From a virus (taxonomy: Duplodnaviria > Heunggongvirae > Uroviricota > Caudoviricetes): a DNA stretch of 20,320 bases. Positions within the stretch are counted from its first letter, which is position 1; the number at the start of each line of letters is the position of its first letter. Both the position numbers and the translations under genes were made by a program. This document shows, piece by piece, positions 767 to 15,294 of this stretch. Location of the stretch: positions 1-20,320 of the IMG/VR virus record IMGVR_UViG_2565956608_000010; one strand, 5' to 3'. The notes below the pieces were generated by a model. It saw only the letters and a program-made list of their open reading frames with translations, was not told the origin of the DNA and did not search any database.

Positions 767-1279
767 TTAAACGGTATGATATTTCATTCTGGCTGCCTCA
801 AAAGCCGCAGCGGCAAGTTCGGCAGTGTCATGGTATCCAAGGTTAATACACTTTCCAGACGCATTAATTCTTGCTCTCCATTTCCCGTACTTAGCATCCC
901 AAGACACGCCACGGTATCCAGATTTATTATTCTTCTGAATTTTCCTGTTTTGCATATTTTCGGAATGAGTGACAAGACGAAGATTTGATATCCGGTTATC
1001 TGTTCTTACCCTGTTGATGTGATCAATAAAACCATCGGGCATGGTGCCATAAACAATCAACCATGCCAGTCTGTGAGCAGGGCATGCTTTACCATTAATC
1101 ATAATCATTAAATACCCATCAGAATTTATTGATGAGCATTTCTTGAAAGCAAAACGAGAGTTCCATGTCAAAGTGGTCCTCTCTCTCCCCTGCCTCCATC
1201 TCCAGTGAAAGTCGCCTGATGATGGATTGTAATCAACAACAGAAAGCACCATTTCTGGCGTTAATTTTATTTCTTTCAT
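767..1279 (-). CDS. HNH homing-type endonuclease with C-terminal AP2-like DNA-binding domain (170 aa)
   Basis: HNH motif AHRLAWLIVYG...FIDHINRVRTDNRISNLRLVTHSENMQN, then GYRGVSWDAKYGKWRARI...LGYHDTAELAAAAFEAA typical of the AP2 domain in phage HNH endonucleases. Confidence 0.8.
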   Translation of the reverse strand: MKEIKLTPEMVLSVVDYNPSSGDFHWRWRQGRERTTLTWNSRFAFKKCSSINSDGYLMIMINGKACPAHRLAWLIVYGTMPDGFIDHINRVRTDNRISNLRLVTHSENMQNRKIQKNNKSGYRGVSWDAKYGKWRARINASGKCINLGYHDTAELAAAAFEAARMKYHTV

Positions 1280-1992: not shown

Positions 1993-2654
1993 GCGCCTTC
2001 TCCCTGTACCTGAATCAATGTGAGATTTCCGCAGAACACTGCGCCGGTATCGATATACATCTGGTTGGCAAATTTGAGCGGTTTCACTGCTGGCGTATGA
2101 CCAAAGATGAACATGTCCGCGCCTTTGATTTCTTTCACGATCCCGTCTTGTGAGTTGCTGATTCGTTCGCGGTTCCAGATTACCTGCTGATGATCAACTG
2201 GCTTTCCAAACTCGTATTCGTCACAAGGATAATCGGCGTGGCAGATGACATATTTTTTATCTTTGCTCACCAGTTCGATGATTAACGGAAGTTCATCTGC
2301 TTTATGGGCAAGAGCTTTAGCCAGAATTTCTTTGTCGTAATCGAGATTAAAGAACCAGCCACCGCCATTAAGCAGCCAGTGATTGACGTTTCCACGCTCT
2401 GATAAGCCATCAATCATCATGTGCTCATGGTTTCCACGTACAGCTCTGAACCAGGGGAATGTGATTAATTCCAGGCATTCAACGTTCTCTGCACCACGAT
2501 CAACCAAATCGCCAACCGAGATAAGCAGGTCTTTTTTGGTGTCGAATCCAATCGTATCCAGTTTGTTCATCAGGTTCGTGTAGCATCCGTGCAGGTCGCC
2601 AGCTACCCAAATATTTCGGTATTTGCTGCCATCAATTCTTTCGTAGATATTCAT
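1983..2654 (-). CDS. ninI: NinI serine/threonine protein phosphatase (lambda PPase homolog, 223 aa)
   Basis: Near-identical to lambda phosphatase as I recall it ([30 protein letters not shown] metallophosphatase motifs); start overlaps the ninG stop (ATGA). Confidence 0.95.
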
Positions 2655-3262
2655 GCTGCCTCACTTCTGCTGTTTCGCAGATTTTTAAGTTTCTGCTGAT
2701 ACTCCGCCTTGATGGCCCTGCACTCTTCGACAGTCCAGCGATGGCGGTTATGGTTTAATTCGATTTCGTCTACTGCTTCCTGCCCGATGCGATTAATCAG
2801 TTCGACGCGATACGGAACGAGATTTCCGCTTTTGTGCTGGTTGCACACCACGCATTGCTTGTGAATATTGCGTTCATCAAATCGGAGTTGAGGTGCCGCA
2901 GCAGTTGTCCGGTAATGTCCGGCATCCCACTGAGCAGACGTGAGCGTTCCGCACGAGATACATGGTAAGTCGCGGTCTCTTTCTCTGATGAAGGCGTTTA
3001 CGGCTTGTTGGGCTTGTTTAATCCAGTAACTGCGGGGCTTTAAGGCGAGTTTTCGAATCTTAAGTTTATCTTTCTGTTTCTGCTCCTCTCGTCGTCGTTT
3101 CTTCTCTGCTGCTTTTTCCGCTTTTTCGCGTTCTTTACTTCGTCGTTCGAGTGCTATCTTGGTTCCACACTCTGGAGAGCACCACCACTGATTAGCGAAT
3201 GCAGGATGAAACCATTCCCGACATTTATCGTTTTTACATCGTCTTCGCGCTGGTTTAGCCAT
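2651..3262 (-). CDS. ninG: NinG (Rap) recombination-associated protein, 203 aa
   Basis: Cys-rich N-terminus ([12 protein letters not shown]...WCSPECG) and central CISCG...CVVCNQHK match lambda NinG; ATG overlaps the ninF stop. Confidence 0.9.
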
Positions 3263-3425
3263 CGTCTTCTTCCTCGTGCATCGAGCTATTCGGATCGCTC
3301 ATCAGTTCTGCACAGCAGTGCTCACACACGTGAACTTCCAGCACATGCAGCTTCTGACCGCAGTTAGCGCACGTTAAAGCTCGCTCGACGCTTTCTTGTT
3401 CGTAACTTCGATTTTGGTCAATCAC
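3255..3425 (-). CDS. ninF: NinF (56 aa, GTG start)
   Basis: Manual translation gives [56 protein letters not shown], matching lambda NinF; GTG start overlaps the ninE stop (GTGA). Confidence 0.8.
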
Positions 3426-3604
3426 CTTGTTTTCCTCGCACGTTCTCTAAGCCACCGGATATCCCACAGGTGAGCCGTGTAGTTGAAGGTTTTTACGTCA
3501 GATTCTTTTGGGATTGGCTTGGGTTTATTTCTGGAGCGTTTCGTTGGAAGGTATTTGCAGTTTTCGCAGATTATGTCGGTGAAACTTCGTCGCTGTCGTC
3601 TCAT
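3422..3604 (-). CDS. ninE: NinE (60 aa)
   Basis: Internal Met of the 80-aa track ORF gives [60 protein letters not shown], near-identical to lambda NinE; ATG overlaps the ninB stop. Confidence 0.85.
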
Positions 3605-4041
3605 GCCGCCCTGTCTCCCCATCGCGCTTTCCATTCGAGAGCCAGTCGCGCTTCGTCTGACCACTTAACGCCACGCTCTGTACCGAATGCCTGTATAAGC
3701 TCTAATAGCTCCGCAAATTCGCTTACACGCATCCTGCTGGTTGACTGGCCTATTACCACAAAGCCATTCCCGGCAAGGTTAGGAACAACATCCTGCTGCT
3801 TTAATGCTGCGGTAAACACACACTTCCAGCTTTCTGCATCCAGCCAGCGACCATGCCATTCAACCTGACGAGAGACGTCACCAAGGCAAGCCCAAAGCTT
3901 TCGATTCTGGTCTAAGCTGCGGTTGCGTTCCTGAATGCTTACTACGATTGGTTTGGTTGGGTCTGGAAGGATTTGCTGGATAGCTTGAATGGCGTTCTGC
4001 TGATGGATGGGGCTTCTTAGTTCAAATGTTAGTTTCCTCAT
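3601..4041 (-). CDS. ninB: NinB recombination protein (146 aa)
   Basis: From [34 protein letters not shown]... the sequence is near-identical to lambda NinB; the upstream extension of the track ORF is assumed not translated. Confidence 0.9.
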
Positions 4042-4210
4042 CACCCTTAATCCTCTCGAAGTTCTTCTCGAAGTTTTTGGTGTCGAACACTGACCACCGA
4101 CCATTATGAATGGCGTATGCACAGGTCTTGTTTTCGTCCTGATAAACTACCCTTACCTTGCGATAAAACCGTGGCTTAATCTCTCTGAATATTTGCTCGC
4201 TCATGCTCAC
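4022..4210 (-). CDS. hypothetical protein (62 aa)
   Basis: ORF with RBS AAGGAG 5 nt upstream of the ATG; overlaps the ninB start by 20 nt; no family recognised. Confidence 0.5.
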   Translation of the reverse strand: MSMSEQIFREIKPRFYRKVRVVYQDENKTCAYAIHNGRWSVFDTKNFEKNFERIKGDEETNI

Positions 4211-4555: not shown

Positions 4556-4586
4556 CAAACAAAAGACCTGCGATTACCAGCAGGCC
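4556..4586 (-). terminator. putative Rho-independent terminator downstream of HNH endonuclease 2 (possibly bidirectional)
   Basis: Hairpin GGCCUGC / GCAGGUC (7 bp with one G-U pair, 8-nt loop) followed on the minus strand by UCUUUUGUUUG; on the plus strand the same hairpin is followed by a T-run (4587..4599). Confidence 0.45.
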
Positions 4587-4587
4587 T

Positions 4588-5199
4588 TTATCTTTTTTTA
4601 ACACGCTTTCGAGTCCTTTTAGATTTTTCCTTAAGATATTCCGCAAGTTTATCCTCATCATTATTAAATTGAGATAAAAGCTCATGCTCGCAATTAAGTG
4701 CTTTACTCGCATAAGTTCCATATAGTTTCTTTCTTGCTAGTGCTGCTATGAATGCTGCATCTTCTTTGCTATCGAAATACCCTAACGATATTGTCTTATT
4801 TTTATAACCAACATAAGACTTCCACCTGCCAGTTGTCTTATCCCAAGACACTCCAATCGCACCGGATGTGTTTAACCTATTCCCTACAATGTTTCTTGCA
4901 TTCTGCTCCTCTGTTGCCAGTCTTAGATTTGAAATCCTATTGTCAAGTCTGTTCCCATTTACATGATCAATAAACTTAGGAGGCCATTTTTTGTATACAT
5001 AGAACCAAGCAAGTCTATGCGCATAATACAAAACATTATTTATGCTAATGCATATATAACCACCACTAACACCTCCAGCAATACTACCTTTTACTCTTAC
5101 TACTGAATTTGTTTTTAGCCATTTAAATATTCCTGTTTCTGAGTCATATGATAATGTTGACAGAAGCTCATCGTGATCAATTAGTTTTTTTATTCGCAT
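4588..5199 (-). CDS. HNH homing-type endonuclease with AP2-like domain, second copy (203 aa), AT-rich
   Basis: AHRLAWFYVYKKWPPKFIDHVNGNRLDNRISNLRLATEEQN (HNH) and GVSWDKTTGRWKSYV...LGYFDSKEDAAFIAALA (AP2-like); same architecture as 767..1279; codon usage looks AT-rich compared with the neighbours. Confidence 0.8.
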   Translation of the reverse strand: MRIKKLIDHDELLSTLSYDSETGIFKWLKTNSVVRVKGSIAGGVSGGYICISINNVLYYAHRLAWFYVYKKWPPKFIDHVNGNRLDNRISNLRLATEEQNARNIVGNRLNTSGAIGVSWDKTTGRWKSYVGYKNKTISLGYFDSKEDAAFIAALARKKLYGTYASKALNCEHELLSQFNNDEDKLAEYLKEKSKRTRKRVKKR

Positions 5200-5277
5200 A
5201 AAGAATATACTTAATAATATATACAGTAAGAACCATTAGTAACGATAACCCTGCTATCAGCTCAGTGATGTAGATAG

Positions 5278-5547
5278 TCATTGCTTCATCTCCCTTTCCA
5301 TTTCATCAATGTCAACGTCATCAGGAAGATGGGAGCAATACGCCGCTATACCATGATGATTTATCTCATACCCTTTGAACGTTACCATCTGGCGCGTAAT
5401 CTCAACTTCGTTCAGGAATCCGTCATCGCATAACTGCCTGGCTATTTTCGATTTGGTCTGGATTATTGGTAGTGCCTGTTCTTTCAAAGCGTATGATATT
5501 TGTGCATCCCATGCCTTTTCGAGAATGGCTAATTGTTTTTTATTCAT
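5278..5547 (-). CDS. hypothetical protein (89 aa)
   Basis: ORF whose ATG directly abuts the primase-helicase stop (TAAATG); no family recognised. Confidence 0.5.
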   Translation of the reverse strand: MNKKQLAILEKAWDAQISYALKEQALPIIQTKSKIARQLCDDGFLNEVEITRQMVTFKGYEINHHGIAAYCSHLPDDVDIDEMEREMKQ

Positions 5548-7428
5548 TTAATACTCCGTCACGTTTTCCTGTCGCCACGCCTCGTCATATTCCGATTTCG
5601 GCATATTGGCGATGTAGCTATATGGCGATCCTGATTCAAGTTGCAGGAACTGGTGCGATTGCTCGTCAAGGAACAACGGGATACCACCTTCCCAACCTTC
5701 ACCGTTACGTTGTTTTTCAAGCAACAAAACAGATGCCGGAGACACCAGTAGCTGTTCGTCCTTCTCTGACATCTGTTCACCGCTTTGAACTCTCTGTAAC
5801 GCTCTCTCGCGAGCCTTGTTACGCCAGATGATAAAAAGGTTGTCTGTCAGGTCTGTTATCGCTCCAGAGCCTTTTACGTCCATTTTCCCGGTTGGTTTTT
5901 CTTCGCTGTCTCCTTTTCGCGAGTGAGTAACGAGAATGACGTGGGAGTTTGTTTTGTTTTTGAAGTCGCAAATCGAGTCAACAAACGCCTTCTGCCCGTT
6001 ATAGTCATCGTCGCCTATGCCACATTTCATCAGGCTGTCGATGATGAATAACTGGATACCGTATCGGCGGCGAGCGTAGTCGAATATTTCGATCAGCCTG
6101 TCGGCTTTCGCCGTTCCGGTCAGGCCAAACACCCAAAGTCTTTCGTCATAAAATTTAAATGCAGAGTCAATTTCCAGCACTGGCGGCATCTTGCAGCACG
6201 TCGCCTGACGGGTAAGGCGCTTAAGGAGAATACCAGGCTTCAGCTCAAGTGACGCGATGCACGTCTTCACACCCTGACGCATTGCCTCAAGTGCCATATG
6301 CCCGACAACCTCCGTTTTTCCGTGACCGTTCACACCATTGACCAGCGTCAACTCGGCCTCACGGAACTGGAATTTATCTGCCAGAGATTCCCACGGTGGA
6401 TTAAACAGATACTGCTGCTTGCCGTAGAAAGCGTTGATAGTGTCCTGGTAAAACTCTCGCGCGCTGTAGAGTTCTTCAGGATCGAAGTAGGATGCCGTGC
6501 CGATGTACTGCCAGATTTCATCCTCGGTAACACCGTTCATCAGGCATTCGTTGATGTCTTTGTACGGCAGAGTAACAAGACGGCAACGATGTTCACCGAG
6601 TCGGCTTGCGATTTCCCTTGCGGCTTCACGACCAACATCATCAACGTCCATCGAGATGAATATTTCCTCAAACCTGTCGAGGTTGTGATACTCAAACTCA
6701 ATCCACTGCTGCTTAGCGCCTTTCCCGCCACCAAACGGCACGGATAACGCCGAGATGCCGTATTGCGCATAGCTCATACAATCAATTTCGCCTTCGCAAA
6801 GTACAACCGCCCTCACGCCAGCGTCCAGAGCCTGCCATCCGAACAGACAAGGTTCGCAATCACCTTCTGCCATAATGACTTTCTTCCCGTCCGGGCGCTC
6901 AGTGCTGATTCGCTTGACCTGCAACAACTCACCATCGCGTTTGTACGGAATCACCAGAGCATCCAGTTCCCGCTCTCCATTCCACACCTTGCCGCTGACA
7001 ACCTCGTAGCGCTTTACGATTTCTGGCGATATGCCACGCGATTGCAGGTACTCAAGATGGGATTCTGTTCTGGTAACGTAGCGGGCGATTTTCTTGCGAT
7101 CAGGTCTGGAGAATTTCTTCTCACGTCTGGCATCGAAATGGTGATCGTCATCCTTGATACCGAGAAATGCTTTCGCTTCCTGCATAGCCTGATGCAGGTT
7201 AATTCCACGACATGCCATCCACAAATCAAGCATGTCACCGCCGTCTCCCTCAGCGAAATCAGCCCATTTTTTCTTGCCGCTAAGGTTGACCTTAAGGCTG
7301 TTTCCCTTGTCACCGTTGACGTTACCGGCAACCCACTCATGCCCCTCTTTCTTGCCATTTGGCAACAGGTGCGGAGCCACCCTGTCAACCTGCGCCCAAA
7401 GCAGGTCGCTAAGTTCACTTGGCCTCAT
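5548..7428 (-). CDS. bifunctional DNA primase-helicase (N-terminal primase-like region, TOPRIM, C-terminal P-loop ATPase), 626 aa
   Basis: TOPRIM-like acidic motif VVLCEGEIDCMS; Walker A LVNGVNGHGKTE; Walker B-like LFIIDSLMK; RBS GAGGGAA before the ATG at 7428; occupies the position of lambda O/P. Confidence 0.8.
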   Translation of the reverse strand: MRPSELSDLLWAQVDRVAPHLLPNGKKEGHEWVAGNVNGDKGNSLKVNLSGKKKWADFAEGDGGDMLDLWMACRGINLHQAMQEAKAFLGIKDDDHHFDARREKKFSRPDRKKIARYVTRTESHLEYLQSRGISPEIVKRYEVVSGKVWNGERELDALVIPYKRDGELLQVKRISTERPDGKKVIMAEGDCEPCLFGWQALDAGVRAVVLCEGEIDCMSYAQYGISALSVPFGGGKGAKQQWIEFEYHNLDRFEEIFISMDVDDVGREAAREIASRLGEHRCRLVTLPYKDINECLMNGVTEDEIWQYIGTASYFDPEELYSAREFYQDTINAFYGKQQYLFNPPWESLADKFQFREAELTLVNGVNGHGKTEVVGHMALEAMRQGVKTCIASLELKPGILLKRLTRQATCCKMPPVLEIDSAFKFYDERLWVFGLTGTAKADRLIEIFDYARRRYGIQLFIIDSLMKCGIGDDDYNGQKAFVDSICDFKNKTNSHVILVTHSRKGDSEEKPTGKMDVKGSGAITDLTDNLFIIWRNKARERALQRVQSGEQMSEKDEQLLVSPASVLLLEKQRNGEGWEGGIPLFLDEQSHQFLQLESGSPYSYIANMPKSEYDEAWRQENVTEY

Positions 7429-7532
7429 GATTCCCTCAGATTGAGATTTTTAAACCAGAAATCGACAAACGAAATACTTAACCAGCCGTGGTTATAACCA
7501 GCGACCAGTAGCGATTTGATTTTTGATTTCAT
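7425..7532 (-). CDS. possible small ORF (35 aa) translationally coupled between initiator and primase-helicase
   Basis: ATG at 7532 six nt after the initiator stop; its stop overlaps the primase ATG (ATGA); manual translation MKSKIKSLLVAGYNHGWLSISFVDFWFKNLNLRES; may be only an intergenic spacer. Confidence 0.25.
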   Translation of the reverse strand: MKSKIKSLLVAGYNHGWLSISFVDFWFKNLNLRES

Positions 7533-7535
7533 GGT

Positions 7536-8333
7536 TCACCTGTCGAAAAACACGTAGCCAGTTTTCGATACGGTGATTGCGGATGATGGTTTGGATTGTG
7601 GTTGAATGGTTTCTGGCTTTTCGTCGTTCCAGCGCTGACCTTTCAGGTAGCTCGATGGTAACAACCTGTCGAATCCAAACTGCTTACCATTCCTGCATGC
7701 GATGTCTTCTGCCAGCATCGTGGCAAACTCGCTTGCCGTACCCCTGGTAGTTTTACGCCATTCCCTGAACTGTGTTCTGAATGCCGACGCTGCGTTTTTC
7801 TTCCCGGCCTTCCGCATGCCTGCACACCAGAATATTTCCTCGAATGCCTTGTCGGTTTCTTCGTGACGGTCAGGAGTTTTTTCACACTCCGTTCGGACAT
7901 GTTCGAACATAATGTTTTTAGGTTCATTGACTGGTTCAAAAGAGTGATAGGTTCTGGGGGCAGCTCCTGCCCCACCCCCTAGGGCAGCTCCTGCCCCACC
8001 CCGGGCAGCTCCTGCCCCACCCCGGGCAGCTCCTGCCCCACCTGATTCTGGTGGGATTTGTTGTGCATTATCCAGCGTCAGATAAAAAACGTTTGACTGG
8101 TTAAGCTCTCCTTTTCTTCTGCATTCCCTTTTCAAAAGACCCATCTCTTCCAGTGCCCTAATGTGACTTTTTACTGTCGATCTGCTCACCTCACACTGGT
8201 CAGCGACATGTTGATATGAAGGCCAGCATTCGCCATTATCATTGGCGTTATCGGCAAGTTTAATCAGAACCAGTTTTCTCAGTGGGTTGCCAACCTTTAT
8301 ATTCATGGCCTTAGCCATAAGATTCATGCTCAT
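7536..8333 (-). CDS. putative replication initiator / origin-binding protein (HTH N-terminal domain, Gly/Ala repeat linker), 265 aa
   Basis: N-terminal winged-helix-like segment (LVLIKLADNANDNGECWPSYQHVADQCEVSRSTVKSHIRALEEMGLLK); contains the iteron array in its coding sequence (translated as GGAGAARGGAGAARGGAGAALGGGAGAA); sits upstream of the primase-helicase in the lambda O position. Confidence 0.65.
   Translation of the reverse strand: MSMNLMAKAMNIKVGNPLRKLVLIKLADNANDNGECWPSYQHVADQCEVSRSTVKSHIRALEEMGLLKRECRRKGELNQSNVFYLTLDNAQQIPPESGGAGAARGGAGAARGGAGAALGGGAGAAPRTYHSFEPVNEPKNIMFEHVRTECEKTPDRHEETDKAFEEIFWCAGMRKAGKKNAASAFRTQFREWRKTTRGTASEFATMLAEDIACRNGKQFGFDRLLPSSYLKGQRWNDEKPETIQPQSKPSSAITVSKTGYVFFDR
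7956..8042. repeat. four tandem direct repeats of about 21 bp (GGGCAGCTCCTGCCCCACCCC), each with internal dyad GGCAG-CTC-CTGCC; putative ori iterons
   Basis: Unit starts at about 7958, 7982, 8003 and 8024 (periods 24, 21, 21), read directly; a more AT-rich stretch follows at about 7895..7950; arrangement parallels lambda ori inside gene O. Confidence 0.7.
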
Positions 8334-8473
8334 TTTGACTTCTCCGAAGTTTTGTACCTGTTAAGTATTTCTCTCAGTGGCACAGCTATTGCTGGATTAA
8401 CCCCCTGATAAAACTGGTCACGTAGCACATCTTTTCGGTGATTAACGCGTTTATTTTCCTGCGTTTTTCGCAT
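8330..8473 (-). CDS. small hypothetical protein (47 aa) between cII and the initiator
   Basis: Internal Met of the 103-aa track ORF (MRKTQENKRVNHRKDVLRDQFYQGVNPAIAVPLREILNRYKTSEKSK) with RBS GAGG before the ATG; stop overlaps the initiator ATG (ATGA); the longer track ORF overlaps cII and is rejected. Confidence 0.4.
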   Translation of the reverse strand: MRKTQENKRVNHRKDVLRDQFYQGVNPAIAVPLREILNRYKTSEKSK

Positions 8474-8495
8474 ATAATTACCTCGTTGGATGTTG

Positions 8496-8795
8496 TTAAA
8501 ATTCCATCTGGATTTGTTCAGAACGCTCGGTCTTGCACACCGGGCGTTTTTTATTGGTGAGTCCATCAAGTGCATACTTAAAAGCCCTGCTAATCGGACT
8601 GATGTCTGATGCCATTCCGAAAGCACACAAGACCGAAGCAATAAATCTCCAGTCCGTTCTGCTTATCTTCGATTCATGACAGCCAATCATCTTTGCCAGA
8701 CCGCGCTGGGTAAGCGTTGACAGGTTGATGAGTAAATCTGTTTCTGCGCGATCAACGTCGCGCTGGGATAGTTTGCTGTAACTTGTTTGTGTCAT
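8496..8795 (-). CDS. cII: CII-like transcriptional activator (99 aa)
   Basis: C-terminus TNKKRPVCKTERSEQIQMEF matches the lambda CII C-terminus (…TNKKRPAATERSEQIQMEF); position immediately downstream of cro. Confidence 0.85.
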   Translation of the reverse strand: MTQTSYSKLSQRDVDRAETDLLINLSTLTQRGLAKMIGCHESKISRTDWRFIASVLCAFGMASDISPISRAFKYALDGLTNKKRPVCKTERSEQIQMEF

Positions 8796-8880
8796 TTCTT
8801 AATATTTCCAATAGTGAATAGTTAGTTGAAAGGTATGCGTGGAAACGCATATGGCCTTAGTTGGTCAGATATATTGGGAC

Positions 8881-8926
8881 TCGCTTTGTCAGCGACGTAG
8901 GACGAATGTCCATTGTGAAAAGAGCG
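8881..8926 (-). promoter_or_regulatory. nutR-like site: boxA-like CGCTCTTTT and boxB hairpin UCGCU-GACAA-AGCGA
   Basis: Minus strand reads CGCTCTTTTC (8917..8926) just after the cro stop, then about 21 nt, then a 5-bp stem with GACAA pentaloop (8881..8895). Confidence 0.5.
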
Positions 8927-8933
8927 GTGTTAC

Positions 8934-9143
<210 letters not shown>

Positions 9144-9158
9144 TTAGTACATGCAACC

Positions 9159-9228
9159 ATTATCACCGCTAGAGGTAAAATAGTCAACACGCACGGTGTT
9201 AGATATTTATCCCTTGCGGTGATAGATT
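9159..9228. promoter_or_regulatory. Right operator OR1-OR2-OR3 with divergent promoters pR (minus strand, to cro) and pRM (plus strand, to cI)
   Basis: OR1 TATCACCGCTAGAGGTA 9161..9177; OR2 CAACACGCACGGTGTTA 9185..9201; OR3 TATCCCTTGCGGTGATA 9208..9224; pR -35 TTGACT (9187..9182) and -10 GATAAT (9164..9159) on the minus strand; pRM -35 TAGATA 9200..9205 and -10 TAGATT 9223..9228. Confidence 0.9.
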
Positions 9229-9231
9229 TAA

Positions 9232-9948
<717 letters not shown>

Positions 9949-10116
9949 TTGTGTGAAACAGGCTGCAGAAATGCAGTCTTTTTCGGTTATCGATGTCACC
10001 ACTGGTAAATCGTTTACCATAAGTCTTGATCTATTTGGTTTACCGTGTCACTCTTGGTGCACCACTTTACCAATGGTAAAACATTAACCAGCAATGACAT
10101 CGTTAACCAGGAGTTT

Positions 10117-11139
10117 ATGATGAAGAAATATGCTATATGGAACAACAAGGGAGGAACAGGGAAAACAAGCCTGTCATTTCAAGCTATTTGCAGATATGCA
10201 GAAATTCACCCGCTTGAGCGCGTGTTGGTTATTGATGTGTGCCCACAGGCAAACTTGTCAGAGCTTTTTCTTGGGGGGTTAATAGGTAATGGAAGCATAA
10301 ACTTATTGACTAGGCATGATATAAATAATAGATGTACTTTGGGTGGCTACTTCCAAATGCGCCTCCCGACGCCTTATCAAAAACCCATTGTTGATGCCCA
10401 CGATTATTTGACACACCCAAAAAAATTCAACGAACATATTCCAGCCAATATATCGTTGGTATGCGGTGACCCGCTTCTTGAGCTTCAAGCAAACGCCATC
10501 AACACTCTTGCTAATCAGCAGATTCCAGGAACAAATGCATGGGTAAGCATCATTGATTGGATTAATGATCTTATTAAAGATCTAAATGATGAGTACGATG
10601 TTTTATTTATTGACTGTAATCCTAGTTTTTCAATTTATACTCAAATAGCATTAGCTGCTGTAGAAAAGCTCATCTTGCCAGTTATGGCTGATGATTCCTC
10701 TCGTCGCGCCATTCAAAATGCTTTCTCTTTGATTTATGGATTAAAGTTGCCATCTGATATTTATGCATCCTACGCATTTGCAAACAAACTTACCGCGGTG
10801 AGCAGACCACTACCCAAAGTTCATATGATCGCAAAAAACCGTCTTACACAGTATATGGGGCCTGCATCAGCCTATGCCGCAGTTCTAAAATCAATCGATA
10901 ATGATATTCAGCAACTATTACTAAGTAACCCTGAAATTTTCGACTTCGAAAATATTGAAGAGGGAGTGGTAAATATTAAAGATTTTCAGACAACTGGTGT
11001 TGTTGCCTTTGCTAAAGGATGTCCATTTTCGATCCTACCAACAGGTAGTGTACGAGTTATGAACAGAAGGGTAAAAGTTAATGCCCCATATAAACAATCT
11101 TGCTTAGAAGCCATTGATAGGATGGTGGTTAAACTATAA
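10117..11139 (+). CDS. ParA/MinD-like P-loop ATPase (340 aa from MMKKYAIWNNKGGTGKTS) in the rexAB position; function unknown, candidate exclusion/defence gene
   Basis: Deviant Walker A KGGTGKTS near the N-terminus, ParA-type motif VLVIDVCPQANLS and later VLFIDCNPS; RBS AGGAG 4 nt upstream of ATGATG at 10117; AT-rich by eye; flanked by the cI terminus and a terminator before OL. Confidence 0.7.
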   Translation: MMKKYAIWNNKGGTGKTSLSFQAICRYAEIHPLERVLVIDVCPQANLSELFLGGLIGNGSINLLTRHDINNRCTLGGYFQMRLPTPYQKPIVDAHDYLTHPKKFNEHIPANISLVCGDPLLELQANAINTLANQQIPGTNAWVSIIDWINDLIKDLNDEYDVLFIDCNPSFSIYTQIALAAVEKLILPVMADDSSRRAIQNAFSLIYGLKLPSDIYASYAFANKLTAVSRPLPKVHMIAKNRLTQYMGPASAYAAVLKSIDNDIQQLLLSNPEIFDFENIEEGVVNIKDFQTTGVVAFAKGCPFSILPTGSVRVMNRRVKVNAPYKQSCLEAIDRMVVKL

Positions 11140-12047: not shown

Positions 12048-12587
12048 CTAAATTAGCTCATCAGCTTTACCAGCAAAGCGCATATAACACTCATGGAACC
12101 AGACGTCAGGTATAACAAATTTCTCTCTACCTGACGCGCTGTAAGTCACACCTGAGCGATGGAGAAGGCCTTTTCTCATAAGAGATAAAGCGACCGGATC
12201 GCCGTGCTTAAGTACGATTTTGTTATTTGCCATAACAGCAAATGCTAAAACCTCTTTTTCCTGAATACTCAGAGAATTGAACAGGCGCTCAGTCTCCACA
12301 ATTACTTTAGCCTCATCTCTCTTACTGAGATATTTTTTATATCTGTCTGAAGATGCCAGAAATATAAACTCCATCACCCTGTTCAGAACATAACTGATAC
12401 ACAAAAGCATTGCGTAATACATCCAGTGATCTGGAAGTATTTCTGGGTTCCTTATATCTACCCACTCTTTAATTGATGCGGGGGTGATTATTATCAAGGC
12501 AATTAAAATAATAAGCATATGAATTAACTGTTGTAGCGTAAGACCACGCAGGAAGAAACGTAATAGTTCCTGCCACCAGTTACTCAT
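12048..12587 (-). CDS. SieB-like superinfection exclusion membrane protein (179 aa)
   Basis: Convergent, tail-to-tail with N as I recall lambda sieB being; hydrophobic helix LIHMLIILIALIIITPASI; assignment by position and topology, not by recognised sequence identity. Confidence 0.45.
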   Translation of the reverse strand: MSNWWQELLRFFLRGLTLQQLIHMLIILIALIIITPASIKEWVDIRNPEILPDHWMYYAMLLCISYVLNRVMEFIFLASSDRYKKYLSKRDEAKVIVETERLFNSLSIQEKEVLAFAVMANNKIVLKHGDPVALSLMRKGLLHRSGVTYSASGREKFVIPDVWFHECYMRFAGKADELI

Positions 12588-12797
12588 CGGTGAATCTCCA
12601 TCATTCTCTCTGTAGGGGGTGAATAGAGTTTATCCGATTTCTCGCTGTAGGGGTACACGAGAACCACCGAGCCTGATGTGGTTAAAAGACAGGCACAATC
12701 TTTACTACCGCAAGCCACGCAGTGAAATGGGTGTGACTTGTGTTGGTCGCCAGAAAATGAAATTAGGCAGCAAACCACTTATTTGAGAGGAATTAAT

Positions 12798-13421
12798 ATG
12801 TCATCAATCCGCTTAACTACGAGAATGAAAGAGGAAATCGCTCGTAACGCTTTAATTAAGTCCGGGGTGTTCACTGAACTTGAAGAAGTAACAAAGTTAA
12901 AGAACCAGCTTGCACTTGACGCCAGAGTTATTGCGTTTGGCGGGAAAAAGAAAACCGAAGAAGTGGACCAGCTGGCATCAAAGTTAATGGCTGCAAGTGA
13001 GGAACTTCAAAAGCTGGGATGTTCATTTTACTCATGCGATGTCAGTTCATGTTCGATTTATCTGACTGTATCTGGAAGAAGGGTTGGCTGGCATTCATAC
13101 GGAAAAGACGGCAACGGTGAAGATATATTGCTCCCTACCCCCGACAAAGATAAATGCATGTTTGACGCAGAACACAAAATAACAAAAAGGTTTGATGAAA
13201 TCTGCGCATTGCAACAAAAACTTGAAGCCAGGAAAAAGGATATAGAATCAAACGTATGGGCTGCTTTGAACTCAGTCACAACAGTTAAGCGACTTATTGA
13301 AGTTTGGCCTGAAAGCAAAGAGTTGCTACCAAAAGAAGCAGATAAAGCAAGTGCAGCACTTCCTGCTTTACGGGTAGAAGATTTGAATAAGATGATTGGA
13401 CTTCCTTCCGAGGCCGCATAA
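12798..13421 (+). CDS. hypothetical protein (207 aa from MSSIRLTTRMKEEIA), coiled-coil-rich; occupies the ral/ea10 region of the pL operon
   Basis: Internal Met of the track ORF preceded by RBS GAGAGGA; followed by a terminator hairpin; no family recognised. Confidence 0.6.
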   Translation: MSSIRLTTRMKEEIARNALIKSGVFTELEEVTKLKNQLALDARVIAFGGKKKTEEVDQLASKLMAASEELQKLGCSFYSCDVSSCSIYLTVSGRRVGWHSYGKDGNGEDILLPTPDKDKCMFDAEHKITKRFDEICALQQKLEARKKDIESNVWAALNSVTTVKRLIEVWPESKELLPKEADKASAALPALRVEDLNKMIGLPSEAA

Positions 13422-14778: not shown

Positions 14779-15294
14779 ATGGCAAGCAGAGGCGTAAATA
14801 AGGTGATCATTATTGGTCGCCTTGGGCATGATCCAGAAATCAGATATTCGCCATCAGGAACGGCATTTGCAAACCTTACAGTTGCTACGTCAGAACAATG
14901 GCGTGATAAGCAAACTGGAGAGCAAAAGGAGCAGACGGAGTGGCACCGTGTGGTAATGAGCGGGAAACTGGCAGAAATTGCCAGCGAATATCTGCGAAAA
15001 GGCTCTGAGGTTTATCTTGAAGGCAAATTGCGGACAAGAAAATGGCAGGATCAAAGCGGACAGGATCGGTTCACTACCGAAGTTATCGTGGGCGTTGGTG
15101 GAACCATGCAAATGCTTGGTGGCAAGCAAGGAAGCAATGAACAGTCTTCACCTCAGCGAAATAACGGCCAGCAACAAAGACAGCAATCTCAGCAGCAGGG
15201 GAATCACAGCGAACCACCTATGGATTTTGACGACGATATACCCTTTGCGCCAGTAACTCTCCCCTTCCCTCGTCACGCTATTCACGCAATTTAA
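14779..15294 (+). CDS. ssb: single-stranded DNA-binding protein SSB with a 15-aa extension past the DDDIPF motif (171 aa)
   Basis: Strong similarity to E. coli SSB (MASRGVNKV...TEWHRVV...[15 protein letters not shown]...[12 protein letters not shown]...[11 protein letters not shown]); the ORF continues [15 protein letters not shown] before the stop. Confidence 0.9.

Follow-up and report, generated by a model that had tools for sequence, protein, structure and literature searches.

The window analysed here, a stretch of 20,320 nucleotides that makes up positions 1 to 20,320 of the IMG/VR virus record IMGVR_UViG_2565956608_000010 (Caudoviricetes), carries between its cII-like gene and its nin genes a replication cassette in which an initiator gene with a candidate origin inside it stands next to the gene of a predicted primase-helicase of the T7 gp4/Twinkle type, in the place where phage lambda has O and P. 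We read it, with a probability of roughly 0.8, as the replication cassette of a lambdoid prophage with lambda immunity, lying in the pR operon, in which the initiator would work together with a self-loading primase-helicase. The module itself is already known, and its recognition here adds nothing conceptually new. Its five genes, in the order of transcription, are these:

8330-8473, minus strand: orf47, a small conserved open reading frame (ORF) (sequence, phrog_1913).
7536-8333, minus strand: a 265-residue replication initiator, O-like in function, with an HTH_36 N-terminal domain (HTH_36, PHROG, 96% identity to the 'O' protein of phi24B).
7425-7532, minus strand: orf35, the gene of a conserved 35-residue protein of the ES18 gp60 type (phrog_21848, conservation).
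5548-7428, minus strand: a predicted bifunctional primase-helicase of 626 residues with T7 gp4/Twinkle architecture (phrog_239, PDB matches, Foldseek).
5278-5547, minus strand: orf89, of the ES18 gp62 type (ORF list, phrog_2239).

All of the ORFs proposed in an initial annotation of this DNA are present on the minus strand in the ORF list, and as judged from the sequence the five genes downstream of cII form one translationally coupled chain. The stop codon of orf47 overlaps the ATG of the initiator as ATGA, the initiator's TGA (7538-7536) is separated by 3 nt from the ATG of orf35 (7532-7530), the stop of orf35 and the start of the 626-residue protein overlap as ATGA at 7428-7425, and the stop of the latter (5548-5550) directly abuts the ATG of orf89. 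The initial annotation had described genes linked by overlapping or nearly overlapping stop and start codons with a possible 35-residue ORF between them, which is what the 3-nt gap and the ATGA give; it had mentioned neither the coupled orf47 and orf89 nor the iterons inside the initiator gene nor the lost zinc ligands discussed below.

The boundaries of the cassette are best seen against lambda, and four features mark them out:

9159-9187, minus strand: pR-type promoter, TTGACT-17-GATAAT (promoter scan, best match 10/12).
8496-8795, minus strand: cII-like activator gene, whose 3' end bounds the replaced segment on the left (Phage_CII, 1e-34).
8520-8550, plus strand: oop-type antisense terminator in the 3' end of cII (scan: 12-bp stem and T-run; within the lambda-homologous 8500-8561).
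4562-4589, minus strand: terminator-like hairpin in the homologue of the ren-ninB spacer, at the right boundary (terminator scan).

A blastn comparison of the window with positions 35,000-44,000 of lambda is the basis for the statement, made already in the initial annotation, that O and P have been replaced. Window 8920-9949 corresponds to lambda cro-OR-cI at 98% identity, window 8500-8561 to the last 60 nt of lambda cII (the only part of the cII-like gene with a lambda DNA match), window 4561-4591 to lambda 40591-40622 in the ren-ninB spacer, and window 3601-4044, 2651-3597 and 1990-2645 to ninB, ninE-ninG and ninI, respectively. Within 4592-8499 this comparison finds no lambda match. Because that interval lies unmatched between lambda-like flanks, lambda O-P-ren, about 1.9 kb, has been replaced by about 3.9 kb. 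The TTGACT-17-GATAAT sequence is taken as pR because it lies inside the lambda-identical cro/OR/cI block, and by analogy with lambda it would drive the cro-cII-replication operon; the hairpin at 8520-8550 is probably the lambda oop terminator, and the one at 4562-4589 we take to be tR2, judging by the lambda map. On each side of the replaced segment there is thus a short island of lambda homology with a terminator-like hairpin, and it is plausible that these islands serve as linker sequences for module exchange. In PHROG and Pfam the early region of the window reads integrase, excisionase, Abc2, exonuclease, single-stranded DNA-binding protein (SSB), Erf, SieB, N-like antiterminator, a 364-residue ParA-like ATPase, cI, cro, cII, the replication module, an HNH endonuclease, NinB, NinG, NinI and Q, so that the phage encodes its own SSB (14779-15294), Erf and Abc2. 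At Rfam gathering thresholds no annotated RNA element is found anywhere in the window.

The 626-residue protein carries most of the argument, and its parts are set out below with their positions in the window:

7153-7428, minus strand: zinc-binding-domain-like N-terminal domain, residues 1-92, without Cys/His ligands (TIGR01391, fold match).
6499-7116, minus strand: RNA-polymerase/TOPRIM primase domain, residues ~105-310 (Toprim_2, aligned acidic residues, predicted local distance difference test (pLDDT) 78-92).
5659-6366, minus strand: superfamily 4 (SF4) RecA-fold helicase domain, residues ~355-590 (AAA_25, DnaB_C, aligned motifs).
5551-5631, minus strand: conserved acidic/aromatic C-terminal tail, YIANMP..EYDE.W..ENVTEY (conserved in the homologue alignment).

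The initial annotation had given this protein a primase-like N-terminal region, a TOPRIM motif and a P-loop ATPase, and each is recovered: the NCBIfam model TIGR01391 (dnaG) matches residues 26-143 (2e-9), Toprim_2 matches residues 209-296 in Pfam (3e-12; 47 bits, cut-off 22), and the Walker A sequence G365-x4-GK371T supplies the P-loop lysine K371. Over residues 5-622 the protein matches phrog_239, 'DNA primase/helicase', at 9e-171, and AAA_25 and DnaB_C together cover residues 355-578 (Pfam), the latter with 22.8 bits and so below its cut-off of 27. A sequence search of the PDB returns T7 gp4 (5ikn, 6n7i, 1q57) at ~3e-23 over residues 192-539 and Twinkle at 6.5e-14. Identity to these two enzymes is ~21-28%, and the order of parts is the same in all three: a zinc-binding-domain-like region, a TOPRIM RNA-polymerase domain, a linker, an SF4 helicase and a C-terminal tail.

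The catalytic residues, moreover, align one to one. In the TOPRIM domain E212, E214, D216, D261, D263 and D291 correspond to T7 E157, E159, D161, D207, D209 and D237; in the helicase K371/T372, E395, D464 and H502 correspond to T7 K318/S319, E343, D424 and H465 (motifs 1, 1a, 2 and 3), and motif 4 is nearly identical, 'DVKGSGAITDLTD' here and 'DLRGSGALRQLSD' in T7 gp4. None of these TOPRIM and helicase residues, nor the strand K572-Q-R574-N-G, varies among 20 aligned homologues (69-94% identity; Salmonella, Klebsiella, Citrobacter, Pantoea, Erwinia, Xenorhabdus, Pragia and Proteus). R574 is presumably the arginine finger, an assignment by comparison with the DnaB and gp4 motifs, the phmmer alignment ending at residue 539.

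Consistent with the sequence matches, the AlphaFold2 model of the protein (mean pLDDT 62.8; primase half 70-92) retrieves full-length T7 gp4 and Twinkle chains as its top 14 Foldseek matches in the PDB (among them 5ikn, 1q57 and 7t8c; E down to 6e-19, 514-633 alignment columns), followed by the zinc-binding and RNA-polymerase domains of Aquifex DnaG (2au3); gp4, Twinkle, DnaG, KaiC and DnaB make up its structural neighbours. Sequence and model agree in making the protein a gp4/Twinkle-type enzyme, with a predicted DnaG-type TOPRIM primase fused to an SF4 helicase, and a check of the ATPase family places it among the SF4 (DnaB/gp4-type) helicases, so that the helicase assignment of the initial annotation stands. 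It is not an orthologue of DnaB, since DnaB_C stays below the Pfam cut-off and the DnaB N-terminal domain goes unmatched, and the kinship is one at the level of the SF4 superfamily only. An SF3 primase-helicase of the P4 alpha or D5-like kind is likewise ruled out: Pfam, PHROG and NCBIfam give no such matches, and the structural neighbours differ. Membership in a defence system was rejected as well, the PADLOC match to a DRT-associated DnaG-like model being weak and at the level of TOPRIM.

The N-terminal domain is the part about which the assignment of function is least secure. When the N-terminal 190 residues alone are compared with PDB sequences, nothing matches even at E=10, so it is the dnaG NCBIfam match and the fold that support calling this a zinc-binding domain; the fold of residues 1-92 is modelled as a beta-ribbon with helices (pLDDT 70-87) and matches 2au3. 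No Cys or His in these residues is conserved in the 20-homologue alignment. What is near-invariant instead is a pattern free of ligands, E31-W-V-x-G...G-x-S-L-K-x-N-L-x-G-K...W-x-D-F-A-E-G...G-D-x-L-D-L-W, and more than 25 of residues 21-91 never vary; few parts of the protein are conserved better. Proteobacterial relatives down to 34% identity (our loci L026-L040 were compared) are all zinc-less in the same way, while CxxC/CHC2 ligands are kept in distant homologues from Desulfobacterota, Firmicutes and Bacteroidota (L043, L044, L047, L054). The enzyme of the window differs in this from T7 gp4 and resembles metazoan Twinkle.

One may then ask whether the protein acts as a helicase only, its primase half being silent or repurposed, for example for docking to the initiator, and host DnaG still being needed. 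The disappearance of four zinc ligands throughout a proteobacterial prophage clade whose distant homologues retain them speaks for such a protein, as does the presence of Twinkle among the best structural and sequence matches. On the other hand, all six acidic TOPRIM residues with a catalytic role in T7 gp4 are invariant, the zinc-less domain is itself very strongly conserved, and no other part of the protein is modelled as confidently as the RNA-polymerase domain; from these three observations together it follows that selection maintains an active-site-like surface. We therefore consider a helicase without priming function unlikely and keep to the bifunctional enzyme, with the proviso that, the domain being zinc-less, primase activity is something that we infer for the 626-residue protein, and that this is the main uncertainty of the model.

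The 265-residue protein and the origin that its gene appears to contain make up the other half of the cassette:

8049-8333, minus strand: winged helix-turn-helix (HTH) N-terminal domain of the initiator, residues 1-95, the presumed iteron reader (HTH_36; not alignable to the N-terminal domains of ES18 and mEp043).
7958-8040, unstranded: iteron array, four exact 17-bp copies of GGGCAGCTCCTGCCCCA (TRF score 143; starts at 7958, 7982, 8003 and 8024).
7870-7957, unstranded: lower-GC stretch with the palindrome ATGTTCGAACAT at 7899-7910, the presumed unwinding region (composition profile, sequence).
7539-7919, minus strand: C-terminal domain of the initiator, residues 139-265, presumed to recruit the primase-helicase (identity to ES18 gp59 and mEp043 gp54).

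That this is an HTH initiator-like protein, as first proposed, is borne out by an HTH_36 winged helix (PF13730) at residues 17-67 (5.5e-14, Pfam) and by matches of the whole protein to PHROG replication-initiation families (1e-75 to 1e-31). Pfam finds no match to PF04492 (Phage_rep_O) in it; with HTH_36 present and PF04492 absent, the protein is O-like in organisation and outside the O sequence family. A PDB sequence search with the initiator gives only insignificant matches to HTH regulators.

In the middle of the gene, and in frame with it, lies the array of four GGGCAGCTCCTGCCCCA copies, which encodes GGAGAAR peptide repeats. Each copy contains the dyad GGGCAG-CTC-CTGCCC, the spacings are 24, 21 and 21 bp, and the four matches, against 0.05 expected, have no counterpart elsewhere in the window. 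Immediately downstream of the iterons in the direction of transcription comes the stretch 7870-7957, with the 12-bp palindrome ATGTTCGAACAT; its GC content is 38%, while the iterons have 75-77% and the remainder of the initiator gene about 50%, and by analogy with the lambda ori this stretch may serve for unwinding. In lambda, too, four dyad iterons lie inside the initiator gene, at the same position in the operon, and an easily melted stretch comes next, of which the lower-GC stretch here may be the counterpart. Database copies of the initiator, retrieved with residues 137-265, are mostly labelled 'partial' and are cut near the repeats; our guess is that the GC-rich iterons often break short-read assemblies.

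A protein that matches the GntR, IclR and ArsR families of HTH proteins in Pfam, if weakly, and that NCBI names merely a 'helix-turn-helix domain-containing protein' might also be a transcriptional regulator, in which case the 21-bp repeats would be a mere Gly/Ala coding repeat and the origin would lie elsewhere. We regard this as very improbable. The PHROG matches are to initiator families, the gene sits in the slot of O, and the repeat is conserved as DNA, in four exact dyad 17-mers, with copy number changing by whole iterons. At the same place in the gene, moreover, ES18 and mEp043 have iterons unrelated to these, and the peptide encoded there is not rich in Gly and Ala.

The comparison with ES18 and mEp043 also shows how the initiator is put together. 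From residue 139 onward, 119-122 of 127 residues (94-96%) are identical among the window initiator, ES18 gp59 and mEp043 gp54; upstream of this the HTH_36 domain of the window is unrelated to the Phage_rep_O-type N-terminal domains of the other two, and the DNA homology to phages of the ES18/mEp043 type stops at ~7920. The iterons change with the N-terminal domain: in place of GGGCAGCTCCTGCCCCA, ES18 gp59 has four copies of TCCCTCAnTTTGAGGGA and mEp043 gp54 has TGTCACCnnnnGGTGACA, different dyads at the same position in the gene, and the GenBank record of ES18 labels its iteron array rep_origin, 'similar to lambda ori'. Judged from sequence, the initiator is a chimera with its joint at the origin, an exchangeable N-terminal domain with its iterons on one side and, on the other, a C-terminal domain that stays with the primase-helicase. 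The same layout, a pair of domains that meet in a mosaic joint at the origin, is that of lambda O. Database matches to the C-terminal domain carry either PF13730 or PF04492 N-terminal domains, and in 23 of 32 further loci, defined by an initiator ORF found beside a primase-helicase gene, the C-terminal domain is clearly related (local score at least 230).

In lambda the N-terminal domain of O binds the iterons and its C-terminal domain binds P. By analogy with O, and given its co-inheritance with the primase-helicase across different N-terminal domains, the C-terminal domain of the present initiator may recruit the helicase. The cassette as a whole could then work as follows. Once cI is inactivated, transcription from pR would lead to expression of the coupled genes; the winged HTH of the initiator would bind the four 17-bp dyad iterons inside its own gene, and this binding would open the adjacent lower-GC stretch. 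The C-terminal domain of the initiator would next recruit the T7-gp4-like enzyme, perhaps with help from the orf35 protein, and the enzyme would load itself on the single-stranded DNA as a ring-shaped SF4 helicase while its TOPRIM domain makes RNA primers. Host Pol III would synthesise the DNA, with the phage SSB available. On this scheme the phage would supply initiator, helicase, primase and SSB and borrow only the host polymerase; there would be no loader of the P/DnaC type, and probably no need for host DnaB or DnaG. The module differs from that of lambda in having no sequence similarity to O or P, no helicase loader, and a helicase and primase of its own where lambda hijacks DnaB. The suggestion in the initial annotation that dependence on host DnaB, DnaC and DnaG would be reduced is a reasonable one, by analogy with T7 gp4 and with lambda and P22.

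T7 gp4 loads itself on single-stranded DNA without a loader, and it is the closest characterised relative of the present enzyme. Self-loading is nonetheless the step at which the host might re-enter, if the primase-helicase needed a host loader or if host DnaB acted alongside it, for example in a late, sigma mode of replication, so that dependence on DnaB and DnaC would stay. Pfam and PHROG reveal no recognisable loader of the P/DnaC type in the phage, a result compatible with self-loading or with some other factor, and orf35 and orf89 are without known function, which leaves room for such an arrangement. Besides the kinship with gp4, the position of the helicase gene in the exact slot of lambda P and of the P22-like DnaB-type gp12 and the co-inheritance of the initiator's C-terminal domain with the primase-helicase count against it, and we consider it quite improbable next to a primase-helicase that loads itself.

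Several points weigh against the model nonetheless. The zinc-binding-like N-terminal domain is without any of the four zinc ligands, and the zinc-binding domain of T7 gp4 is needed for template-directed priming; in metazoan Twinkle the loss of that domain accompanies the loss of primase activity. The structural model of the 626-residue protein is moderate overall at its mean pLDDT and poor in the linker and in parts of the helicase domain. The 'AT-rich' stretch 7870-7957 reaches just 62% A+T, and the lambda ori is more A+T-rich than this. A different initiator C-terminal domain is paired with the primase-helicase in some of the loci compared (the Xenorhabdus loci L019 and L021, plus L011, L020, L023 and L025), and a few (L015, L019, L021 and L029) are without orf35; because some relatives differ in these ways, neither the C-terminal domain nor orf35 is obligatory. 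A literature search for host-factor or enzymological experiments on this type of module found none. Taken jointly, a zinc-free or initiator-docking zinc-binding domain, an orf35 protein acting as adaptor or loader, and independence from DnaB, DnaC, DnaG and DnaK/DnaJ would make the module a three-part replisome starter that needs no host helicase, a combination that is possible and, on balance, doubtful.

The small genes of the chain are conserved in their own right. For orf35, which corresponds to ES18 gp60, the match to phrog_21848 is at 4e-26. In 22 sequences (that of the window and those of 21 loci, drawn from roughly a dozen named genera and from metagenome-assembled genomes) orf35 has exactly 35 codons, with the consensus MKSxIKxLLIAGYNHGLLSxxFVRYWFxKLxLRxx; across relatives its stop overlaps the helicase start or lies within a few bases of it. 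With a median pN/pS of 0.38 at a pS of 0.70, sequence evidence supports its being a real gene under purifying selection. Between cII and the initiator, orf47 (MRKTQENKRV...) comes with a Shine-Dalgarno sequence, GAGG, and its match to phrog_1913 (4.7e-22) spans the whole ORF; orf47 takes the position of ES18 gp58 and mEp043 gp53 (DUF2740), and its counterpart in phi24B is unannotated. At the other end, orf89 matches phrog_2239 at 3.6e-63 and has the same position in ES18 (gp62) and in phi24B.

Close relatives of the whole cassette have been described more than once. The same module is known from ES18-type phages (PMC10307801), and the GenBank record of ES18 calls gp61 a 'putative primase/helicase; similar to phage T7 gene 4' and gp59 O-like, with the origin in the gene. 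The gene order of ES18 gp59-60-61, found also in epsilon34, g341c, SEN22, Sf101 and mEp043, is that of the window, from the small ORF to the gp62-type ORF, and the primase-helicase of this group is likewise 626 residues long, with DNA identity of 88-98% to the window from the primase-helicase through the C-terminal domain of the initiator. The window departs from ES18 and mEp043 at the N-terminal domain and iterons described above.

Closely related as well are the Stx2 phage phi24B and Stx2a_F403, with 96-98% identity to the window over initiator, orf35 and the exteins of the primase-helicase. For phi24B a replication pair 'O2/P2' was described in 2012, the 'P' having TOPRIM_primase and GP4d_helicase domains and an intein at residues 372-702, reported by Smith et al. 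(2012) (PMC3430580). This intein, of 342 residues, sits in the Walker A loop of phi24B, Min27 and F403 as GHGK/A...HN/T, the slashes marking its ends, and the copy in the window is free of it; in the phi24B record (HM208303, our locus L001, 1790-4696) the insertion reads GHGK/ACPLNE...VATHN/TEVV, an intein beginning with Ala. The iterons differ too, four in the window and three in phi24B, by an exact in-frame difference of 7 residues. A pairing of an HTH_36 protein with a primase was named the 'Eru5' type by Fagerlund et al. (2022), with Stx2a_F403 as its reference phage (PMC8951638), and the window belongs to it: segment 5200-8900 is 97.1% identical in nucleotide sequence to AP012529 (Stx2a_F403) over 98%, and the module is transcribed divergently from cI, as that type requires. 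Its immunity region, on the other hand, is lambda cI/cro, which sets it apart from phi24B and Stx2a_F403, and no stx gene lies within the window.

The segment is widespread. Ten phage records match window 5200-8900 at 97-98% identity and over 98% or more of the segment, at least 80% of its 3.7 kb is present in 99 of 5,426 complete E. coli genomes, and the nearest protein cluster holds 5,632 member sequences. A parallel in layout is offered by P22 (gp18/gp12) and phage L, lambdoid modules in which a phage helicase stands beside an iteron-binding initiator (PMC8022706, PMC10307801). At least as PMC8022706 summarises it, citing Wickner (1984), P22 gp12, a DnaB-type helicase, has no primase domain and works with the DnaG of the host; the window differs in having a DnaG-type primase domain fused to its helicase. 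From T7, in turn, the phage of the window differs in being temperate and without a polymerase of its own, and in having an iteron-binding initiator where T7 has transcription-primed origins. The acidic/aromatic C-terminal tail of the primase-helicase, which may recall the polymerase-binding tail of T7 gp4, is kept although the phage lacks such a polymerase.

Around the cassette, a few neighbouring genes deserve mention:

4588-5199, minus strand: free-standing HNH-AP2 endonuclease gene.
767-1279, minus strand: second free-standing HNH-AP2 endonuclease gene.
10045-11139, plus strand: 364-residue ParA/MinD-like ATPase gene.
12048-12587, minus strand: homologue of the superinfection-exclusion gene SieB.
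12738-13421, plus strand: gene of an Nmad5 (nucleotide-modification-associated domain 5) protein.

The two endonuclease genes are paralogous (40% identical, both phrog_99), and both lie at module boundaries. The first follows orf89, just upstream of the tR2-like hairpin, and starts in DNA of 27-40% GC (~5200-5290); the second lies downstream of Q. Because the first is absent from this position in phi24B, ES18 and mEp043, its distribution suggests a mobile homing endonuclease. Where lambda has rexA/rexB, the window has the single ParA/MinD-like ATPase gene (AAA_31, 1.3e-16; phrog_164); PADLOC gives no match for it, and its position suggests an exclusion or defence gene expressed by the prophage. 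The Nmad5 protein (1.5e-68) and the SieB homologue belong to the early-left region.

Cassettes of this kind have been annotated repeatedly since 2005, and what the present comparison adds is small: the boundaries against lambda, the sequence of the iterons and the variation in their copy number, the mosaic joint in the initiator, the standing of orf35 as a gene, and the loss of the zinc ligands throughout the clade. The window, as an intein-free copy with lambda immunity, also offers a convenient construct for biochemical questions. The type of replication module sets which host factors a temperate phage needs, and in phages that carry Shiga toxin (Stx) genes both induction behaviour and toxin yield have been connected with it (PMC8044961, PMC8951638). 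If the doubtful combination weighed above should prove true, many prophages of E. coli and Salmonella, those of Stx2a phages included, would replicate independently of DnaB, DnaC, DnaG and DnaK/DnaJ.

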